Positions 5,428 through 14,268 of a DNA stretch of 64,000 nucleotides are shown here, piece by piece. The stretch comes from Gemmatimonadaceae bacterium (lineage in GTDB: Bacteria > Gemmatimonadota > Gemmatimonadetes > Gemmatimonadales > Gemmatimonadaceae). The notes beneath the pieces were generated by a model that was given only the letters and a program-made list of their open reading frames with translations, was not told where the DNA came from and did no database searches. The position numbers and the translations under genes were made by a program. The stretch is from positions 832,001-896,000 of the forward strand of contig JBHYGA010000001.1 of NCBI GenBank assembly GCA_051859245.1, written 5' to 3'. Positions within the stretch are counted from its first letter, which is position 1, and each line of letters opens with the position of its first letter.

Positions 5428-6531
5428 ATGACCGATACGCTGACGCTCCGCCGCACTTCGCTTTTCGACGCCCACGTCTCACTTGGCGCGCGCATCGTGC
5501 CGTTTGCTGGATGGGAGATGCCCGTGCAGTACCCGGCCGGTATTTCTGCCGAGCACAAAGCCGTGCGTGAAGCGTGCGGATTGTTTGATGTGAGTCATAT
5601 GGGTGAGGTGATTGTGAGTGGTCCCGACGCGATGGCGTTCGTGAATCACGTCACCAGCAACGATGTGGCGGCGCTCGCTGTGGGCCAGATCCAGTACAGC
5701 ACCTTGCTGACCGAGCGCGGCACGATCGTTGATGATCTGCTCGTGTATCGATATCCCGATCATCTGTTTCTGGTGATCAACGCCGGCAATCGCGATGCGG
5801 ATATCGCGCATTTGCGCGCGCACATTGGCGCGTTCGATTGCACCATGGAAGACGTGTCGGATTCGTACGCACTGCTGGCGGTGCAGGGGCCCAATGCGCC
5901 GGCGATCGTGCAGCGTTTCACGAGCACACCACTCGGTGAGATGAAGTACTACCGGTTTGCCGACGGCGAAGTGGCCGGCGTGCCGGCGATTATTTCGCGC
6001 ACGGGTTACACCGGTGAGTTGGGTTTTGAACTCTACGTGCCGTGGGAGCAGGCGCGCACTGTGTGGGATGCGCTGATGGCCACGGGCGAGGTCACGCCGT
6101 GCGGACTTGGCGCGCGCGATACGCTGCGTCTTGAAGCCGGCATGGCGTTGTACGGCCATGAACTCAACATTGACACCACACCACTCGAAGCCGGACTCGC
6201 GTGGCTGGTGAAGCTCGGCAAGACCGATTTTCTCGGCAAGGATGTGCTCGTGCATCAGCACACCGATGGGTTGGATCGCAAGCTTGTTGGCTTCACGTTT
6301 GACGAGCGCGCGATTCCGCGCAGCGGGATGCCGGTGTGGTACGGCGACCTCCCGTCAGGCACTGTGTGCAGTGGCACCATGAGTCCCACGCTTGGGATGC
6401 CGATTGGCACCTGTTATTTGCCGGCCGCCGCTGCGGTTGAAGGAACCGTGTTTGCGGTGGACATTCGCGGCAAGCATGTACCGGCGCGCGTGGTGCCACT
6501 GCCATTCTACAAGCGGGCGGGCAAGGCGTGA
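5428..6531 (+). CDS. gcvT: Glycine cleavage system aminomethyltransferase T
   Basis: [44 protein letters not shown]. Confidence 0.97.
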
Positions 6532-8174
6532 GTCGAAGTACCTCGCGTGCGTCGCGCGTAACAGGCGACGGCGTTCCCCTGGGCAGTGTGGCCATTCTGC
6601 TCACCGACGTGGAACCGGCGGTGCGTTTGAACGCCGTGCTCGAAGCACGCGGTGTGCAGGTCACGCTCATCTCGCCACTCGATGATGTGCGCGGCACGCT
6701 GCGTCGCGCGCGTCCCTCGGTGCTGGTGCTCACCGGTGCATTGCTTGACGGTGCGAACGTGGCCCTGGTGCAGGAACAGCTGTGGCACGACGTGAGTGTC
6801 ATGGGACTCACCGATGCGGTCAACGACGAGTTGCTCGACAAGTTGCGCGCGGTGGGCTACGCCGAGCTTGTGTCGAAGCCCGTGGTGGTGGAGGAGCTGG
6901 CCGACAGTGTGCAGCGCCGCCTGGAGCGTCGTGCACTGGCCGATGTCACCGGTCTGGTGGGAGAATCGGAAGCGATTCGCGAAGTGCTCGTGAAAATCGA
7001 ACAGATCGCGCCGGTCACGAGCACCGTGCTCATTGAAGGTGAGAGCGGCACGGGCAAGGAACTCGTGGCGCGTGCGATCCACCGGTTGGGTTCACGTCGC
7101 AGCAAGCCGTTCATTGCGGTGAATGTTGGTGCGTTGCCGGAAACGCTGCTGGAGAGTGAACTCTTTGGCCACGAGAAGGGCTCGTTCACAGGTGCGGCCG
7201 AACGTCGGCTGGGTCGTTTTGAGCTGGCTGACACCGGCACGTTGTTTCTTGATGAGATCGGCGAAGTGCCGAGCAGCACGCAGGTGAAGTTGTTGCGCGT
7301 GCTCGAAGAGCGAGAGGTCACGCGTGTTGGAGGTGGACAGCCGATTGCGGTAGACGTGCGTGTAGTAGCGGCTACGAATCGTCCGCTGCGTGAGCACGTG
7401 GAGGAAGGCGCGTTTCGCGCGGACCTGTACTATCGCTTGAACGTGCTGCGCATTTATCTGCCGCCGCTGCGCGAGCGTCGTGAGGACATTCCGGTGCTGG
7501 TGCGCCGGTTCGTGCGCGAGTTCAGCGCGCTGCACGATCGTCCGTTTCACGGCATCTCGGGCGACGCGCTGGCGCTGCTGGTTTCGTATCCGTGGCCGGG
7601 CAATGTGCGTGAGCTGCGCAACCTTGTGGAGAGCATGGTCGTGCTGGCGCCGGGGCACGAAATCGGCGCGGATGACATTCCGCGGGCGATTCGTGACGCG
7701 GGTGGTCGGCGACTGTTACCGGTGCCCGTTGGCCCTGTGGTGCGCGAGGGTGAACGTGCGCAGGGGCGCGAGCTGGAGTTCATTGTGCGCTCGCTTGTGG
7801 AGCTGAAGTTACAGGTCGAGGAACTTCGTCGTCGAATGGATGTCGAGGTGCGCTCTCCCAGTGTGGGTTGGATGGGCGAAGTGCATCCGGTCGCAGGGCT
7901 GGCTGCGTCTCCGGTAGGTGACGTGTGGGTGGGAAGTGGGGTGATGGGCGGAATTCCGCCGCGTGACCAGGCAACGCCACCGAGCAGCATTTCGGTTGGT
8001 CCGGAAACCACGATGGCGGAAATCGAGCGTCAGGCGATCGAGGCCATGTTGCGTCAAACGGGTGGAAACCGCCGAAAGGCGGCAGATTTGCTCGGGATTG
8101 GGGAGCGGACGCTGTATCGAAAACTCCGGGAATATCAGGGAGACGGCATTCCGCCGGATCTCGACGTCACGTGA
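6528..8174 (+). CDS. Sigma-54-dependent enhancer-binding protein with degenerate receiver domain and Fis-type HTH
   Basis: GESGTGKE, ESELFGHEKGSFTGA, LFLDEIGE, WPGNVRELRN, NRRKAADLLGIGERTLYRKL; GTG start overlaps the gcvT stop. Confidence 0.93.
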   Translation: MSRSTSRASRVTGDGVPLGSVAILLTDVEPAVRLNAVLEARGVQVTLISPLDDVRGTLRRARPSVLVLTGALLDGANVALVQEQLWHDVSVMGLTDAVNDELLDKLRAVGYAELVSKPVVVEELADSVQRRLERRALADVTGLVGESEAIREVLVKIEQIAPVTSTVLIEGESGTGKELVARAIHRLGSRRSKPFIAVNVGALPETLLESELFGHEKGSFTGAAERRLGRFELADTGTLFLDEIGEVPSSTQVKLLRVLEEREVTRVGGGQPIAVDVRVVAATNRPLREHVEEGAFRADLYYRLNVLRIYLPPLRERREDIPVLVRRFVREFSALHDRPFHGISGDALALLVSYPWPGNVRELRNLVESMVVLAPGHEIGADDIPRAIRDAGGRRLLPVPVGPVVREGERAQGRELEFIVRSLVELKLQVEELRRRMDVEVRSPSVGWMGEVHPVAGLAASPVGDVWVGSGVMGGIPPRDQATPPSSISVGPETTMAEIERQAIEAMLRQTGGNRRKAADLLGIGERTLYRKLREYQGDGIPPDLDVT

Positions 8175-8350
8175 GGTTTGGGGGGATACGTCCATGTGTT
8201 ACAAGATCTTGGACGATTCCCACTATTGCTCAAACGTGACTTTCCCCACATATTGGCCCCGTCGTCAAGCGACCCCTGCTGTTTCGCAGATGGTCGTGCC
8301 GGCGGGATTCTTCCTTCGTTCGATATTCGGGGAGCAGACCGCAGGCTTAT

Positions 8351-9352
8351 GTGGACCGCACTCCGGAGACCGATCTGTCCATTCCAGCGAATCTGGGCCT
8401 TCCCTTGACGTCGAGCGGCAATCCCAGCCTTGGGCAGTCGGGCACGATCGCGGGCAGTGTATTGCCGCTTCGTCGGGCAGAGGAGTTGATCGTCACGTTA
8501 CCGGGGGTCCTGAGTGTACGGATCGTGCCGAACGAGACGGGAGCGATCGACGAAGTCCACGTGCTGACCACAGATGCGGTTCCCCCAAAGAACACCGTTC
8601 GCAATATCGAAAGCGCGCTGATGGCGCAGCTCGGGTTGCGGGTGAATCATCGAAAGATTTCGGTCGCGACCACGCTGGACGCGCCTCGGGCGTCGGATCA
8701 GGCGTCGGAGCGGGTGGTCGAACGTTCGGCCGACCGAGTGGCCTCGCGTCAGCCCGAGACCACGTATATGCCGCCTGGCAGCGCGCCGCTGGCGGGAGCG
8801 CCGCTGGCAGGGGCGCCGCTGGCGAGTGCGCCGGTTGGCAGCTCGCCGATGGGCGATGCGCCTCTGCGAGAAGCCCCGGCCATGCGCAACGCACCGATGC
8901 GCGCCGGTTCTCGGCTGTCGGAAGCGACGCAGGCGTTAGCTGCCGCCGAAGGGCGCCGGGTGCTGATCTTCGAGGATGTGGAAGTTCGCCGGTCGCGTTC
9001 CAAGGGTGTGCTGTGCCGCGTGACGCTGAGCCGCGAGCAGTCGCACTACGTGGGCGAGTCGGAAGGACAGGAATCAGAGCGCAGCCGGGTGGAGTTGGCG
9101 GCGCGTGCGGCATTGTCAGCGATTTCACAGGCGGCCTCGGCCTCCGCGGGCGGGGAGCGCTCGGTGGCGCTCGAGGGGGCCAAGCTGATGGACGCGTTCG
9201 ACCGCGAGTTTGTGTTTGTGAGTGTGACCGCTCGCATCGGTCGCGAAATGGTGGTGCTGACCGGGAGCTGCGAGGTACGCGAGAGCGCCGAAACATCGGC
9301 GGTGCTGGCCGTACTGGACGCGACGAATCGTTGGCTGCATTTGGAGCGCTGA
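8351..9352 (+). CDS. Hypothetical two-domain protein with low-complexity linker; C-terminal domain resembles the LeuA-type regulatory (allosteric) fold
   Basis: Coding-like ORF with ordered N-domain (LPGVLSVRIV..IDEVHVLT..VRNIESAL..RKISVA) and C-domain ending TGSCEVRESAETSAVLAVLDATNR; start uncertain. Confidence 0.75.
   Translation: MDRTPETDLSIPANLGLPLTSSGNPSLGQSGTIAGSVLPLRRAEELIVTLPGVLSVRIVPNETGAIDEVHVLTTDAVPPKNTVRNIESALMAQLGLRVNHRKISVATTLDAPRASDQASERVVERSADRVASRQPETTYMPPGSAPLAGAPLAGAPLASAPVGSSPMGDAPLREAPAMRNAPMRAGSRLSEATQALAAAEGRRVLIFEDVEVRRSRSKGVLCRVTLSREQSHYVGESEGQESERSRVELAARAALSAISQAASASAGGERSVALEGAKLMDAFDREFVFVSVTARIGREMVVLTGSCEVRESAETSAVLAVLDATNRWLHLER
8783..8872 (+). repeat. Degenerate 15-bp tandem repeat (about 6 units) encoding APLAG/APLAS/APVGS/SPMGD/APLRE pentapeptides
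   Basis: gcgccgctggcggga gcgccgctggcaggg gcgccgctggcgagt gcgccggttggcagc tcgccgatgggcgat gcgcctctgcgagaa. Confidence 0.8.
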
Positions 9353-9381
9353 TCAGGGACTCGTCTCGTGATCAGCTTTTT
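9348..9381 (+). terminator. Intrinsic terminator overlapping the stop codon of the hypothetical gene
   Basis: GCTGATCA-GGGACTCGTCTCG-TGATCAGC followed by TTTTT. Confidence 0.75.
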
Positions 9382-9430
9382 ATTCCTTCCTTCCCATTTG
9401 TCTAACGACAACCTCAAAAACGTCCCCCGT

Positions 9431-9522
9431 CGCCCAGTAGAGCGGAGCTGAGCGGGCAGGCCATCAGGTAGTTGAGCGGAGCCAACCTAGCACCAGCATG
9501 CGGAGACCATCGGTCCTGCGTG
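9431..9522 (+). ncRNA. Candidate structured leader RNA with two GAGCGGAGC-loop hairpins and a third hairpin
   Basis: CGCCCAG/CTGAGCG stem (one mismatch) around 9438-9447; TAGTTG/CAACCTA stem around AGCGGAGC; CATGCGG-A-GACC-ATC-GGTC-CTGCGTG hairpin; GAGCGGAGC at 9440-9448 and 9474-9482. Confidence 0.5.
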
Positions 9523-9550
9523 ACTACGCATACAGGGAGGTGACGTTGCA

Positions 9551-9622
9551 ATGGAATTCATGGCCCAGCTCGTGAGTGCTATGTGGTCGTTCGTTTTGGC
9601 CGACGCGAAGACCTGGTCTTGA
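9551..9622 (+). CDS. Unannotated 23-aa hydrophobic peptide MEFMAQLVSAMWSFVLADAKTWS
   Basis: ATG preceded by AGGGAGGTGA (9534-9543), a very strong SD in a window where many genes lack one; below the ORF-track length cut-off; directly upstream of the HD-GYP gene. Confidence 0.7.
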   Translation: MEFMAQLVSAMWSFVLADAKTWS

Positions 9623-9666
9623 TCCTGATCTGACGCGGTGGGGGACTCCTTTTCTTAATCATCGAA

Positions 9667-10989
9667 ATGCCGCCGAGAGTACTTGCGTACGTCTACGTAG
9701 TCGCTGCGACAGCCATTATGGCTGCCGCGGCGCTTTGGCGTCGCGATCCCTCGTTGAACTTCGATTATTTGCTTGGCTCTTTGGGGCTTGTCGTCCTTGG
9801 AGCGTACACCGCAGTCGCCAAGTACAAGACTAGCCGGAGTGCAGATGGTGAGGTGTCGTTCATTCCTTACCTAACGGCGATCATGATCTATCCGAATTGG
9901 TCCACAATCGGGTTGATTGGAGTCGCAGTCGGTGCAACCGAGCTGTCGAAGAAGAAACACTTTGTTAAGCGCCTCTTTAACACTTCACAGTTTCTTCTAG
10001 CGTCCTCTACGGCGATGTTTGTCTACCTCGGTTTGGGAGGTGTTCCGCTCGCCGAGGATAGTAGCTTCAAAATGTTCGCGCATACGGGAGGCGTGGTTTC
10101 ATTCCTCCTTGTCAACTCCTTCGCGGTTGCTGCGGTAATCGCGATCGCTGAGAAGAAGAATGTGTTTCGTCTCTTCTTCGACGCGAACCGCTCGTCATTT
10201 CTGTACGATCTGTTTGCTATTCCTGGTGTTTACGGAGTCGCGCGCGCGTTCACCGACTGGAGCTGGTGGGGGTTGCTCGTCACGGTGGCTTTGCTTTATG
10301 GCGTTCGGCTGATGTATCAGGCAAAGTTGCAGCTAGAGAATACCAACAGGGAGCTTCTTGAGCTCTTCGTGCACACCGTTGAATTCCGAGATCCTTACAC
10401 TTCAGGCCACTCGCAGCGAGTGGCTCGGATATCGAAGATCATCGCGCGCGCAATAGGCCTGCCAAATCGAGAAGTGGAACGCATCGGGAAAGCTGCACTG
10501 CTTCACGACGTTGGGAAGATCCACGAGATTTTTGCACCGATTCTTAGCAAACCCGGTAAGCTTACGCCGGAAGAGCGCGCGATCATGGAGTTGCATCCAG
10601 TGAAGTCGGCCGAACTCGTTTCAAAGCTGAGCGACTTCAACAACATCATTGACGACGTTCGGCATCATCACGAGAACTTCGACGGAACTGGGTACCCAGA
10701 CCGGCTCGTTGGGAAGTCCATTCCGCTCGGATCGCGGATCATCATGTTCGCAGATACGATCGATGCGATGACCACCGATCGACCGTACAGAAAGGCACTC
10801 GGCCCTGAGGCGGTTAAGGCCGAGTTGGTTCGGTGCCGGGGGCAGCAGTTTGACCCGGACATTTGTGATGCCCTCCTTGCGAGCAACGACTACCATCTGC
10901 TTTTCGGTGGCGTCGAGGGAGTTTCCGTTCCGTCGCTGACGCAGATCCTTGATCGCGTCCGAAAGTCGCGAACGCCAGCCACAGTGTAG
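9667..10989 (+). CDS. Membrane-bound HD-GYP domain phosphodiesterase (likely c-di-GMP)
   Basis: About 7 hydrophobic segments in the first 220 aa; RDPYTSGHSQRVA, LLHDVGK, HHHENFDGTGYP, ADTIDAMTTDRPYRKAL. Confidence 0.92.
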   Translation: MPPRVLAYVYVVAATAIMAAAALWRRDPSLNFDYLLGSLGLVVLGAYTAVAKYKTSRSADGEVSFIPYLTAIMIYPNWSTIGLIGVAVGATELSKKKHFVKRLFNTSQFLLASSTAMFVYLGLGGVPLAEDSSFKMFAHTGGVVSFLLVNSFAVAAVIAIAEKKNVFRLFFDANRSSFLYDLFAIPGVYGVARAFTDWSWWGLLVTVALLYGVRLMYQAKLQLENTNRELLELFVHTVEFRDPYTSGHSQRVARISKIIARAIGLPNREVERIGKAALLHDVGKIHEIFAPILSKPGKLTPEERAIMELHPVKSAELVSKLSDFNNIIDDVRHHHENFDGTGYPDRLVGKSIPLGSRIIMFADTIDAMTTDRPYRKALGPEAVKAELVRCRGQQFDPDICDALLASNDYHLLFGGVEGVSVPSLTQILDRVRKSRTPATV

Positions 10990-11010
10990 CAACGTTGGTT
11001 CCTCTGAGCA

Positions 11011-14000
11011 CTACTTCTGCGGTCTAGTGCGCAACGATACGGTCGCTGCGTTCGCGATTTCGAGGAGCTCGTGTTGAAGTACATCGAATACGAAGCCGGG
11101 TTGCGAAAGCTCCCTGCGGTCCACTCCGAAGTAGCGGGCGCAAAGCTCACGAGCGAGCTCCAACTTGCCCGACTCGTGAAGCTTCTGCATCACCGAGGCC
11201 GCTAGGAAGTCCTGTCCTGAATACCTACCGTAGGACGTCAGGTAGTGCGTCGCCCGCTCCAACAGAGCCTGGAATGTGGTCGCGTCTGCCACCACGTCTT
11301 CAGCATGAAGACAGAGAGCTGTACAGTATAGGGTCAGCCTCGTTGGCTTCGTCAACCCAGCGGTTGCGAATGCCAGAGCCTCCTGTGACGAAACTAGCTT
11401 CCCGAATGACAGATGTTCGAGTCGAAGGTTAAACAGTCGAACCCAAGTCTCGCCCTCATGCTCCGGAAGCTGTCCGTGCAGAGCAAATGATCTGCCTAAG
11501 TCGATTGCTCGTCCTCGATCGGCTCCTTCGAAGGCTATGACGGTTTTGCGCCACAAAATGTCTAGTAGCCTCGATGAGCTTTCCTGCACTTGTTGAGATT
11601 TCTCCGCTGTGTTTAGGCAGTCCATCGCGCTGACAACGTCACCGCAGACTCGATGCACAAGCGAGGCGTTGTTGAGTAGTCGAAGCCCCGAAAGGGTCTG
11701 CGCATGTAACTCGCGATCCTTGTGAACCGCAACCGCGAGTTTATTGGCTGACTGCAAATCTCCGAAAATTGTGTTGAACTGCATCATTGGCTCGATGACG
11801 TCTTCTTCCTTCACAACACCCGTACGATGCGTCTCGGCCAACATTGAATACGCCCGAAGTCCAATATCTGCCTCGAAGAGATCCGAGGCAGCTGTCAATG
11901 CGACGCGAATGGCACGGATTTGAGTGACGCCATCTCCTTCCGCTCCGGCAGCGATGTCTAATGCTGCGAGTGCGCTCTCCCGACCTGTGCGCTGTAAGTC
12001 TGTGTGTACTGAGGCTTCGATCTGTGACAGTTTCTGCGCAATCGACAGTTGCGTAGCGCCTTCACCATTGCCCAGAAGTTTGTCAGTCGCTCGAGCGACG
12101 AGCCGCCAACTGAAAGCACGTTCTGCAGAAACGACCATTGCATTTAGTATGCTTGTTCGCGCTGAAGCTTCGGAACAGAGATTCAACGCTGACTCCAAAA
12201 ATCTTAGGATGCCGTCGCCCATTCCCGAGTTTGAGAGCCGGTCTGAGTGTTCTAGGCACATGCTCACGAACAAGCTTGCGTCCCCGGATTCCAAAGCAAG
12301 CGATAAGGATCGAAAGGCGTCCTCTACTGAAAATATCGTTCGCAGTCTATTGCTCAGCTGAGTGGCGAGGTCGCGACGGAGCATCTGTAGCTCTGTACTG
12401 GTGAGCTCTGAATGGACAACTCGACGCACTTCGTCGTGACAGGAAATTTCCCCGGCCGCTCCCTCGTGAAGAAGTCCAGCGTTCATCAAGGCTCGAATCG
12501 CCTTGAGGCGATTGGCCAAACCAAACCCAAATGAATCGTCTAGGTCCATTGAGGTGGCTTTTCCGCCGAGGACCGCGGCGACCGCGACCATGAACCTTTC
12601 TTCAGGCTGCAGTCGGCGAATCTGACGAGCAAGAGTCGCCGCGAGAGAGGCGCTCGACCCGCCAGTGAGGCCCGTAACCAGATGTTCGCGGGCTAGTGCG
12701 ATTACGCTCAGCGGAGTGCTGTCGCTGGATACGGCGATGAGAGTGGCCGATTTCGAATCGAGGCGCCGACCTGTCGGCGTAGAAACAAGTGATGCGATCT
12801 CAACACATGCCTTGTGCGACAATTTTTGCAGAAGCACTGTGGTCTGATGACCGTCTTGCGAATCCCCCTCACGTTCTCCAGCCTGATCTTCTCGTTTCGT
12901 AAATACAAAAAGCAGTCGCTCGTGTTGAAATAGATCGAGCATCTCCAGAATGACTTCCGAGGAGTGCACATCCGCTCGCTGCAGATCGTCGATAAGCACT
13001 ATTAGCGGCGTTTCCTCGGCGATCGCAGCTATGAGCTCATACAAGCATTCGTGAAGGGGAGTCTTCGAGTTGGCAAGCCAAGGCGATTCACCTGGGGGAA
13101 GTTCGACTTCTGAGCCTGCGCACTTGCGAAGGACAGTTAACGCCTCTGGAGTGCATCCGAGGGCGCCTGGGAGTCGGAGAAGGCTGCGCACCAAATGCGC
13201 AAGAGTTCCGAACTTCACCGTACTGTCAAAATGAGACACCCTCACCAAACACCGCGCGAACCCAAGTATCATCGCACGACGCGTCACCTCGTACGCCAAC
13301 TCGGTCTTGCCAATGCCCGCCGGGCCGAGCAATCGCACGATGCGCGGTTCGCCTTGCATGGCGGATAGTGTGAGTGCGTCGAGCTTCTGCAATTCGGCAT
13401 CGCGACCAACAAGTCGCGGCGTGGCGGCTTCGTCGTGCGATAAGCGCACGGCGCGTTCGATGCGCTGCTGCGCCTTCTCGACACGACGGCCAAGATCCGT
13501 GCCGCCCACGCCCGTCTCGCGCACGTATGACTCCAGCAACGACGATGCGTTGACTCGACTCCCAAGCATGGCCACCGCTTCGGCCACGATCAACGTGGCG
13601 TCTTCGTTGAAGGGGTCAAACTCCAGCACGGTACGCGCCCAGCGCTCAGCTTCCTCCCACTCACCGCGATCGCGAAGGCGGCGCAACTCCGGCACAAGAA
13701 TGCGACGCACGTCAGCGTGATAGAGCTCGCGCTGCTGCTCCACCCAACGGCGCAGCGCAGAATAGCTCGGCAGCCAACCGGCGAACAGATGACCAAAGGG
13801 CTCCTGACCTTTGAGCACATCACGGTCGAACAACAGTGCCGTTCGATCCAGCGCAAAGCACGGCAGAAACGTGGTGCGCAGCATTCGCACCGACGCGCGG
13901 CTGCTTTCAATCTCCACGCCGAGTTGACGCAGCTTGTACACGTGCTGACGCAGCGAGTGACGCGCCGATGCATCGTCCATGCCTGGCCACACGAGTTCCA

Positions 14001-14268
14001 TCAGGCTCTCGCGGGCGATCACGTGCTCATGCGACATGCCCACCACCACGAGCAGCGAAAACATGCGCTCGGCGCCCGGCGCGATGACGCCACCACCGCC
14101 AATGTGAATCTCCGCCGTGCCGAGCGTGCGAAAGAGCACCTGCCCGCGTTCAAGCGCGGGCAGCGGCAGCGGTTCAGGCGCGTAGAAGGATTCCAGAGGC
14201 ATCTCATCCAGGGCGAGCGCCGAAGCGGTCGAAATCATTGGCTTCTCCAGGTGGCGGGTAGACGTCAT
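11011..14268 (-). CDS. AfsR/SARP-like regulator: winged-helix + BTAD + P-loop ATPase + helical C-terminal region
   Basis: RESLMELVWP..ARHSLRQHVYKLR, VLEFDPFNEDA, LVGRDAEL, GPAGIGKT, LIDDLQRAD; start 14268 or 14238. Confidence 0.8.
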   Translation of the reverse strand: MTSTRHLEKPMISTASALALDEMPLESFYAPEPLPLPALERGQVLFRTLGTAEIHIGGGGVIAPGAERMFSLLVVVGMSHEHVIARESLMELVWPGMDDASARHSLRQHVYKLRQLGVEIESSRASVRMLRTTFLPCFALDRTALLFDRDVLKGQEPFGHLFAGWLPSYSALRRWVEQQRELYHADVRRILVPELRRLRDRGEWEEAERWARTVLEFDPFNEDATLIVAEAVAMLGSRVNASSLLESYVRETGVGGTDLGRRVEKAQQRIERAVRLSHDEAATPRLVGRDAELQKLDALTLSAMQGEPRIVRLLGPAGIGKTELAYEVTRRAMILGFARCLVRVSHFDSTVKFGTLAHLVRSLLRLPGALGCTPEALTVLRKCAGSEVELPPGESPWLANSKTPLHECLYELIAAIAEETPLIVLIDDLQRADVHSSEVILEMLDLFQHERLLFVFTKREDQAGEREGDSQDGHQTTVLLQKLSHKACVEIASLVSTPTGRRLDSKSATLIAVSSDSTPLSVIALAREHLVTGLTGGSSASLAATLARQIRRLQPEERFMVAVAAVLGGKATSMDLDDSFGFGLANRLKAIRALMNAGLLHEGAAGEISCHDEVRRVVHSELTSTELQMLRRDLATQLSNRLRTIFSVEDAFRSLSLALESGDASLFVSMCLEHSDRLSNSGMGDGILRFLESALNLCSEASARTSILNAMVVSAERAFSWRLVARATDKLLGNGEGATQLSIAQKLSQIEASVHTDLQRTGRESALAALDIAAGAEGDGVTQIRAIRVALTAASDLFEADIGLRAYSMLAETHRTGVVKEEDVIEPMMQFNTIFGDLQSANKLAVAVHKDRELHAQTLSGLRLLNNASLVHRVCGDVVSAMDCLNTAEKSQQVQESSSRLLDILWRKTVIAFEGADRGRAIDLGRSFALHGQLPEHEGETWVRLFNLRLEHLSFGKLVSSQEALAFATAGLTKPTRLTLYCTALCLHAEDVVADATTFQALLERATHYLTSYGRYSGQDFLAASVMQKLHESGKLELARELCARYFGVDRRELSQPGFVFDVLQHELLEIANAATVSLRTRPQK

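Follow-up and report, generated by a model that had tools for sequence, protein, structure and literature searches.

A tryptophan-tailed micropeptide predicted within a structured RNA ahead of a MASE9–HD-GYP gene of Gemmatimonadota, and its putative receptor

Known short peptides and the orphan domain MASE9

Short bacterial peptides and short ORFs are known in several arrangements. Those of the Phr/PapR and SHP/ComS types derive from a short precursor gene located beside the receptor gene, and combine a hydrophobic leader with a C-terminal active unit of 5–7 residues; in SHPs, an acidic residue opens the active unit, and some precursors harbor repeated units. ComX carries a conserved Trp at the third or fourth position from its end, with a membrane receptor encoded adjacently. 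Other examples are tiny hydrophobic proteins tied to a membrane protein, such as MgrB, SafA with PhoQ, or CbiN. Finally, short ORFs in structured leaders, or repeated purine-rich words, characterize the trpL, tnaC and pyrL attenuators and the TRAP, HutP and CsrA leaders.

MASE9 is an orphan sensor domain that occurs from Thermotoga to Streptomyces. In the accessible part of their preprint, Galperin and Chou infer ligand binding inside the membrane for MASE9, naming neither ligand nor fold, and the word "peptide" is absent from the main text (10.1101/2021.11.05.467447). According to the accessible part of another study, the one MASE9 member studied showed no developmental phenotype, for which the authors blame missing activating signals (PMC6205966). 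The gene downstream of the peptide described here encodes a member of the same MASE9–HD-GYP proteins as T. maritima TM1467 and S. venezuelae HdgA, for which the accessible portions of these papers report no ligand, partner peptide, leader RNA or fold (10.1101/2021.11.05.467447, PMC6205966).

A conserved short gene ahead of the MASE9–HD-GYP gene

The window (the whole stretch of 64,000 nucleotides analysed here) contains on its forward strand a 23-codon ORF at 9551..9622, running from an ATG at 9551 to a TGA ending at 9622, whose product would be amphipathic over residues 1–17 and polar in its tail. The original prediction had singled out this ORF, together with a conspicuously strong Shine-Dalgarno (SD), and both observations hold: the translation agrees, and the extended SD AGGGAGGTGA occupies 9534..9543 (+), with the ATG 7 nt downstream. 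Its 8-nt core GGAGGTGA is present twice in the window and at 61 places in the 4.7-Mb genome; its complement is found in the genome's anti-SD-type stretch GATCACCTCC, taken to be the 3' end of the 16S rRNA. Under the same rule, an SD-like site followed by an ORF of 12–45 codons precedes 170 of 3032 long ORFs of this genome, and only 7 of these 170, including the peptide ORF itself, have a Trp in the last two residues. The peptide ORF is more than a chance occurrence and, judged from its sequence and that of its relatives, it is a real, unannotated gene.

In-frame conservation and a dN/dS-type comparison, two checks proposed along with the original prediction, both came out in favor of the ORF. 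An SD-led ORF of 14–35 codons precedes the MASE9–HD-GYP gene in 140/140 Gemmatimonadota-type loci with enough DNA (77 close and 63 further, two of the 140 being read by hand), these loci being kin and their counts therefore not independent draws. The close set comprises the best 80 of 545 relatives, minus 3 that have no upstream DNA, and the rule picked an SD-led short ORF in 77/77; the further set comprises 65 MASE9 matches hand-picked across families, 63 of them with enough DNA, where the fixed rule picked an ORF in 62/63, one miss and one wrong pick being corrected by eye. Substitutions track the coding frame, with an uncorrected pN/pS of 0.61 against 0.72–1.34 in the other five frames (32 distinct 23-codon copies), and pN of 0.08–0.19 against pS of 0.23–0.53 between the window and six close relatives. 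Codon-position entropy is 1.02/0.69/1.14, variation being lowest at position 2, and the 78 peptide ORFs end in any of the three stop codons (28 TAG, 26 TGA and 24 TAA).

The leader, the upstream gene, the MASE9 gene and the downstream STAND gene each occur once in the genome of origin, in which no second leader or second peptide copy was found. Databases hold little that resembles the peptide: 64 peptides gave no match in NCBIfam and two chance-level rows in Pfam (E 0.15 and 0.22), such short queries scoring weakly; 8 of 10 queried peptides, including all 7 of Gemmatimonadota type, are absent from a collection of 15 billion proteins, the remaining 2 being present, but unnamed or "hypothetical"; and a 35-aa relative peptide gave no usable match in the ESM Atlas. 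Seven loci (L029, L031, L044, L070, L071, L076 and L078) are titled Nitrospiraceae, Pyrinomonadaceae, Propylenella, Acidobacteriaceae or Chthoniobacterales. Their sequence and leader are Gemmatimonadota-like; the contigs may be mis-binned, and they were not tallied as other phyla.

The peptide and its tryptophan tail

Peptides range from 14 to 35 aa, and only their tail is fixed. A polar tail with a penultimate Trp had been described for the window's peptide, and this feature proved general: of 141 peptides (window's included; 139 distinct), 133 have a Trp within the last three residues and 131 within the last two, against a Trp frequency of 2.8% elsewhere in the peptides. In the close set plus the window (n = 78), Trp is second-last in 72, at the last position alone in 4 and lacking in 2, one locus (L047) being a doubtful pick. 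An acidic residue (D/E) occupies position W-4 in 80/133 peptides, and is a D in the window's peptide, leading to a tail consensus of [D/E/G]xxxW followed by a stop, G, T, A or S. The six-residue tail is present twice in tandem at locus L107. Against a role of the tail as ligand, 8/141 peptides lack Trp in their last three positions; the MASE9 of these eight keeps the conserved residues checked in 1–164, save for K101, replaced by R in six.

The N-terminal part is hydrophobic (mean hydropathy 1.54), with the last six residues polar, and its hydrophobic residues are arranged amphipathically in 129/134 peptides (above the shuffle median), the window's peptide reaching the 4.5% level. K or R occurs among the first five residues in only 17/139. 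A hydrophobic core with a signal-peptidase-like end had been proposed; the core stands and the end is less general than proposed, an AxA-like site preceding the five-residue tail in only 55/133 peptides, which makes signal-peptidase cleavage possible and not general. A classical Sec signal is not supported, because the N-terminal part is amphipathic (129/134) and in most cases uncharged, and some complete peptides measure only 14 aa. Since the peptide is conserved and tied to the HD-GYP gene, and Trp is its key residue, the most favored reading at present is a Trp-bearing signal peptide. In loci L107–L113 (family f6), where peptides are only 14–21 aa, the anti-SD word CCTCC lies directly 5' of the last AGCGGA repeat of the leader.

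A structured RNA around the peptide gene

On comparative sequence evidence, the peptide gene appears enclosed in a covarying RNA of about 225 nt. A long-range closing helix pairs 9422..9433 (+) with 9635..9646 (+), its 3' strand starting 13 nt past the peptide stop and being followed by a pyrimidine-rich run and then by the HD-GYP start. Between its strands lie a cluster of AGCG(G/A)A repeats at 9440..9487 (+), with perfect copies at 9441–9448 and 9475–9482 and an imperfect one near 9451, which are candidate protein-binding sites; a hairpin with a bulged A at its base at 9496..9524 (+), in which compensatory changes are seen and 4/6 pairs are changed on both sides; and the extended SD, predicted to pair with 9476–9487 through a helix containing tandem G-A pairs.

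Across 51 aligned leaders, the three helices show 96% standard pairs and a covariation of 0.242, compared with 0.124 for shuffled and no more than 0.08 for slid alignments. In the SD helix, 98% of alignment cells are paired and only 1/8 pairs shows a change on both sides, hence this helix is weakly tested because it is nearly invariant; a further covariation, seen in one clade, links the sequence flanking the last repeat to the spacer between SD and start codon (G/C in 26, C/G in 3). In distant families, the closing helix keeps its form with a wholly different sequence on both strands, and its 3' strand is neither a G-run nor an SD. The ends of cognate leaders pair with a score of 31.0, against 22.5 for non-cognate and 20.3 for shuffled ends; the cognate 3' strand is the best or tied-best partner in only 22/122 loci (median rank 7), because close kin share the helix. 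The window's leader folds no better than shuffles overall (z -0.48) and is thus not unusually stable, the structure resting on covariation. Rfam gave no match for 8000–11200 of the window and, for five relatives, three below-threshold miRNA rows away from the leader.

Leaders contain on average 2.48 AGCG(G/A)A words each, whereas coding DNA and the opposite strand both have 0.02; the distances between words peak at 5, 10 and 22 nt. AGCGAA, which contains no GGA, is common (59 against 238 AGCGGA). AGCGRAGC is seen 6 times in the whole window for 7.2 expected, and only its clustering is unusual. The 5-nt GAG-NN pattern of the close family is replaced by AGCG(G/A)A in distant ones. What could these words do? 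Folding predicts the peptide SD to be mostly paired in 54/121 leaders, and release of this SD by a repeat-bound protein was considered and found no backing in the predicted folds: forcing the motifs to remain unpaired changed SD accessibility by more than 0.1 upwards in 19 and downwards in 58 of 121 leaders, and in the full enclosed RNA (65 loci, i.e. every second one) upwards in 8 and downwards in 23, random blocks doing no worse. Blocking the words in silico thus leaves the SD closed. Two known binders were also discarded: TRAP, since PF02081 has no above-cut-off match in the genome of origin (99.9% complete), and CsrA as a general binder, since it is present in only 20 of 74 genomes chosen for carrying the module. 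The csrA gene of the genome of origin (G000:C6:49249-49401) lies beside genes that look flagellar by eye.

RNA-library contigs from two runs of one study, with 0–2 differences from the window, cover 9419–9645, and one 884-nt contig from a relative spans the junction between the upstream gene's end and the leader; these contigs give neither strand, ends nor level, and DNA carry-over is possible. In runs X1 and X2 (word share 0.05–0.06), 9665–10483 is uncovered, such contigs being unable to rank genes or prove absence.

Neighboring genes

Directly upstream, a gene at 8351..9352 (+) encodes a 333-aa protein with no Pfam or NCBIfam family or name, and for which the ESM Atlas gave only "hypothetical" clusters. 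It consists of an N-terminal domain (about residues 38–107), a flexible linker and a C-terminal domain (203–330). The latter resembles the LeuA/CimA allosteric domain (Foldseek E 1.6e-5 to LeuA; Z 9.5, rmsd 3.1 and 110 aligned residues with 3f6g_B), with a weaker likeness to double-stranded-RNA-binding domains, while the N-terminal domain has a common small alpha/beta fold (Z at most 9), weakly like the C-terminal domain of CDF transporters. This protein is encoded in 58/58 close and 60/62 further loci. Judged by this co-occurrence, it would be the most likely binder of the AGCGRA words, and thus a route for metabolic input. Its family counts 4332 proteins at E<=1e-5 among 8000 scored; every one of the 125 family-f2 genomes has it, frequently as several matches, and it extends more widely than MASE9 (232 against 167 of 301 genomes).

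Further upstream, a sigma-54-dependent activator gene at 6528..8174 (+) is a conserved neighbor, found in 48/52 loci with at least 2400 nt of upstream DNA. Downstream and convergent with the HD-GYP gene, 11011..14268 (-) encodes a 1085-aa SARP-like regulator (wHTH/BTAD-STAND-TPR), a conserved neighbor as well: a STAND gene of this kind (about 1100 aa) occupies the same place in 60/80 close loci, several of the other 20 being cut short, and in 14/20 distant loci (L210–L229), with BTAD and TPR matches in relatives. In four f11/f12 loci, same-strand genes are found instead.

The MASE9 domain as proposed receptor

The gene at 9667..10989 (+) encodes a predicted c-di-GMP phosphodiesterase composed of MASE9 (about residues 1–220) and HD-GYP, and is the proposed receptor. 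MASE9 (PF20972) scores 27 bits against a cut-off of 24.3 (28.7 in a second scan) and HD_5 has an E of 1.5e-34, and the HD and HHExxDGxGYP motifs read as intact. This MASE9 gene is unique in its genome, and a MASE9 match was found in 167/301 genomes of the phylum, a tally including the unpublished genome G155.

The structural model of MASE9 (pLDDT 89) takes the six-helix core of the ligand-binding S-components of ECF transporters. Among 48,161 chains compared with VIA-align, the top 14 matches are all S-components (Z 10.1–13.5, rmsd 3.3–4.5, 154–183 aligned residues, identity 5–14%), led by NikM (4m5c_A; Z 13.5, rmsd 3.6, 183 aligned) and 4huq_S (Z 13.4, rmsd 3.4, 158 aligned), the first other match having a Z of 8.5; a Z of about 13 is close to chance level for helical bundles. 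With Foldseek, the same model had nothing at E<=0.001, the best row (E 0.16) being also an S-component, RibU. Conserved polar residues N105, Q108, N150 and D181 fall in helices that would line the pocket, further conserved residues (P76, W78, G124 and G125) being on the other side.

In FolT, according to the accessible part of its description, loops L1, L3 and L5 face outwards, L1 and L3 closing a pocket of about 1,400 cubic angstroms in what is a small-molecule-binding fold (PMC4820897). In MASE9, the loops rich in K/R (50–64, 92–103 and 160–173, with means of 1.7, 3.6 and 2.2 K/R over 79 sequences) would be L1, L3 and L5 by helix order, as deduced from the aligned ranges. This correspondence, together with helix parity counted from the cytoplasmic HD-GYP, makes the pocket appear cytoplasm-facing, the modelled orientation of MASE9 in the membrane being apparently inverted relative to S-components.

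The tryptophan motif outside Gemmatimonadota

In both outside groups, the motif [D/E/G]xxxW[G/T/S/stop] lies beside MASE9 and the AGCGRA leader is absent. Among 16 actinomycete-type loci, none of which contains AGCGRA words, 7 have an SD-led ORF ending in G[V/I][S/T]WT directly before the MASE9–HD-GYP gene; one of these ORFs has only 16 aa and no hydrophobic part, and most of the seven have Sec-like N-termini by eye. Against the tail as ligand, 8 of the 16 have a non-hydrophobic ORF of 30–31 aa devoid of Trp, and one only a remnant. The Trp-less ORF (L153–L158, L163 and L165) starts with MRQPG, ends with GG and has a perfect SD before the MASE9–HD-GYP gene.

In 9 of 29 Acidobacteriota-type MASE9 loci (L198–L205 and L209), an upstream long ORF ends in tandem xxxxWx repeats; the 29 exclude the locus of G301 itself, and 12 of them, chosen partly on hints, were extended upstream. 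The seven scanned of these nine ORFs all encode subtilases that, as judged by eye, bear a Sec-like signal peptide at the N-terminus. Their tandem Trp-hexapeptide tails reach more than 20 units, upstream of MASE9–HD-GYP(-GAF-GGDEF) genes, and resemble the peptide tails, with D at W-4 in 21/49 units and G/T/S at W+1 in 29/49. Locus L205 also has a small ORF (36–44 aa) with three NIVHW repeats. The other 20 of the 29 loci showed no gene with the Trp motif, 17 of them being read over only about 1.3 kb upstream. Such subtilases were counted only beside MASE9 genes, and no Trp-repeat protease was found in the genome of origin. That one motif accompanies one domain on three unrelated carriers suggests that MASE9 reads it.

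Several other observations concern these groups. In six Acidobacteriota-type loci (L167, L168, L181, L182, L183 and L196), the MASE9 gene lies directly 3' of a gene ending in a Fis-type HTH, an ending typical of sigma-54 activators that echoes the activator upstream in the window. Plasmid searches returned one MASE9-type locus with the peptide (L082, Nonomuraea), in addition to a Thermus plasmid HD-GYP match in a different gene context. In L082 (L082:2575-4053 and onwards), with genes named by eye, the peptide and MASE9–HD-GYP genes are followed by a second membrane HD-type gene and preceded by an ECF sigma/anti-sigma pair and an epimerase-like gene, the whole order resembling that of S. venezuelae hdgA-hdgB. 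In the phylum of G302, G302 itself is the only genome of 121 with a MASE9 match.

Possible mechanism and alternative explanations

We infer, with somewhat better than even confidence, that the Trp tail is the ligand of the MASE9 domain encoded by the next gene, and changes c-di-GMP hydrolysis. The ORF is conserved under coding constraint, as seen at the sequence level. The RNA of about 225 nt, with its long-range helix, may uncouple the peptide message from the receptor message and provide the former in excess; the amphipathic N-terminal part would carry the peptide to the inner membrane; and the Trp tail would enter the S-component-like pocket of MASE9, probably lined by the conserved F104, N105, Q108, N150 and D181, altering the activity of the fused HD-GYP. 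Activation, with lower c-di-GMP, is only a slightly better than even guess as to the direction of the effect. Where would the peptide act? An uncleaved peptide at the cytoplasmic leaflet and an exported, trimmed hexapeptide serving as cell-to-cell signal are about equally likely: an exported signal is favored by the carriers seen in subtilases and actinomycetes, and action from inside, or re-import, by the uncharged amphipathic leaders and inward-facing pocket. A predicted cytoplasmic pocket is thus in tension with the Sec-like N-termini of the subtilases and of most actinomycete peptides.

Other explanations need to be weighed against this one. The peptide could be a constitutive small subunit or MgrB-like modulator that stabilizes, assembles or damps the MASE9 protein, its free tail having no signaling role; it is hydrophobic and always adjacent to the MASE9 gene, a Sec n-region is absent in 122/139 peptides, and the top structural match of MASE9 is NikM, M-type S-components using small auxiliary membrane proteins such as CbiN. 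It is nevertheless an unlikely explanation, considering that peptides of 14 to 35 aa are constant in nothing but their tail, that subtilases carry this tail by itself in series of up to more than 20 units and L107 has it doubled, and that the window-matching RNA-library contigs cover the peptide unit. Similarly improbable, as a full account, is a leader acting in cis: ribosomes that reach the stop, or stall on the only Trp codon, would open the closing helix and thereby set the transcription or the translation of the HD-GYP gene, the peptide product being irrelevant. The 3' strand of this helix begins just past the peptide stop, cognate ends out-pair non-cognate ones (31.0 against 22.5; shuffled 20.3), folding gives the helix 6 bp or more in 64/65 loci, with a mean that a ribosome footprint at the stop codon lowers from 19.6 to 11.3 bp, and a GGAG/GAGG/AGGA site is present at only 10/140 MASE9 starts and for only 16% of the genome's long genes. 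Yet a helix of at least 6 bp persists under the footprint in 50/65 loci, the 3' strand in distant families is neither G-run nor SD, and neither the conservation of the amphipathic pattern and of D/E at W-4, nor the persistence of the Trp tail in loci devoid of the leader RNA, fits an irrelevant product. A version in which the leader masks the ribosome-binding site of the HD-GYP gene carries less weight, given the few MASE9 starts with an SD-like site (10/140) and the absence of a G-run from the helix of distant families. Such an action in cis can be additional to the role of the tail as ligand of MASE9.

A soluble receptor, either the SARP/STAND-TPR regulator in an RRNPP-like manner or the upstream protein through its LeuA-like allosteric domain, is a still more doubtful proposition. 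The STAND gene is convergent and adjacent in most close and distant loci (60/80 and 14/20), with BTAD and TPR in relatives, and the 10- and 22-nt peaks in repeat spacing would fit DNA sites of SARP type; but the four f11/f12 loci with no STAND gene downstream keep the peptide, the repeats, the upstream protein and MASE9, and actinomycete- and Acidobacteriota-type loci have the motif beside MASE9 in the absence of the AGCGRA leader. A type I toxin-like membrane peptide, with an mRNA silenced by 5'-3' pairing, would explain a short hydrophobic ORF with a sequestered SD (mostly paired in 54/121 leaders) and ends that pair with each other, features known from mRNAs of the hok or Fst type. It is very improbable for a single-copy gene fixed among the same signaling genes across the phylum; its C-terminal tail is not of the charged kind, Rfam gave no match, no terminator-like site was found on either strand within 8500–10500, and the sole promoter-like site there lies inside the HD-GYP gene on the minus strand.

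Taking the Trp tail as ligand of MASE9 one step further, we tentatively propose, at clearly less than even confidence, a so far undescribed class of peptide signaling, in which DxxxW-type penta- or hexapeptides are read by a repurposed, inverted S-component fold (MASE9) wired to c-di-GMP enzymes. The carriers would be micro-genes in a protein-controlled structured RNA in Gemmatimonadota, Sec-type micro-precursors in actinomycetes, and the repeat tails of secreted subtilases in Acidobacteriota-type loci, serving to sense other cells or protease activity in bacteria of soil and water, both diderm and monoderm. If true, peptide signals would be linked directly to c-di-GMP turnover via a transporter-derived receptor in a large, poorly cultured phylum. 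A candidate ligand that is cheap to synthesize, a fold and a pocket are now named for MASE9, and the question of its signal thereby becomes testable. In addition, the locus adds a small-gene family for which Pfam gave only chance-level rows and NCBIfam none, and an RNA family for which Rfam gave no above-threshold match.

Comparison with known systems

The original prediction had compared the peptide to ComX and ComS/XIP. A Trp-bearing signal peptide is still the favored interpretation of this conserved ORF; membership in either family is unsupported, because no ComQ/ComP/ComA or ComR-like gene is adjacent. The two alternatives offered in that prediction, a membrane micro-regulator and a leader peptide, stay among the competing explanations; MASE9 as proposed receptor domain, the conserved RNA around the ORF and the conserved upstream and downstream genes were not part of it. 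The likeness to ComX lies in a Trp near the C-terminus (133/141; last or second-last in 131) and an adjacent proposed membrane receptor, the ComX precursor being about twice as long as the peptide described here. Directly upstream, the protein with a LeuA-allosteric-like fold and no Pfam or NCBIfam match takes the place of comQ, and downstream the MASE9–HD-GYP gene, then the convergent STAND gene, are found instead of ComP/ComA. As for ComS/XIP and SHP, no ComR/Rgg HTH-TPR protein of about 300 aa is adjacent, the only TPR neighbor being the 1085-aa STAND protein, and the peptides do not have a basic N-terminus followed by a hydrophobic stretch (K/R among the first five residues in 17/139; amphipathic in 129/134).

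Unlike MgrB, SafA and CbiN, the peptides here have an amphipathic helix, are constant in their tail alone and, in many copies, are too short for a membrane span (14–17 aa). The MASE9 model has the six-helix core in common with S-components (NikM, FolT, BioY, ThiT and RibU), at 5–14% identity, and departs from them in having additional helices at both termini, an enzyme fused to it, an apparently inverted orientation and no adjacent ECF module; L1, L3 and L5 would not face outwards as in S-components, the equivalent MASE9 loops being predicted inside. Attenuators and protein-bound leaders have in common with this locus a short ORF, a structured leader and recurring purine-rich words, but here there is a single Trp codon, no tryptophan-pathway gene and no TRAP, and CsrA is present in only 20/74 genomes.

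The literature searched, in which subscription journals are mostly outside coverage, yielded no paper on the peptide, the RNA or the MASE9 fold, and no part of the peptide-RNA-receptor arrangement belongs to a described system. With Phr/PapR and SHP/ComS the system shares a precursor gene next to the proposed receptor, a hydrophobic leader, a C-terminal unit, an acidic start and repeats; unlike in RRNPP systems, the proposed receptor is a membrane S-component-like domain on a c-di-GMP enzyme and not a soluble TPR protein, and the peptide gene is enclosed in a structured RNA with no Rgg, Rap or ComR neighbor. By analogy with the general features outlined at the outset, the module would work most like Phr/SHP-type precursor-receptor pairs or MgrB-type modulators.
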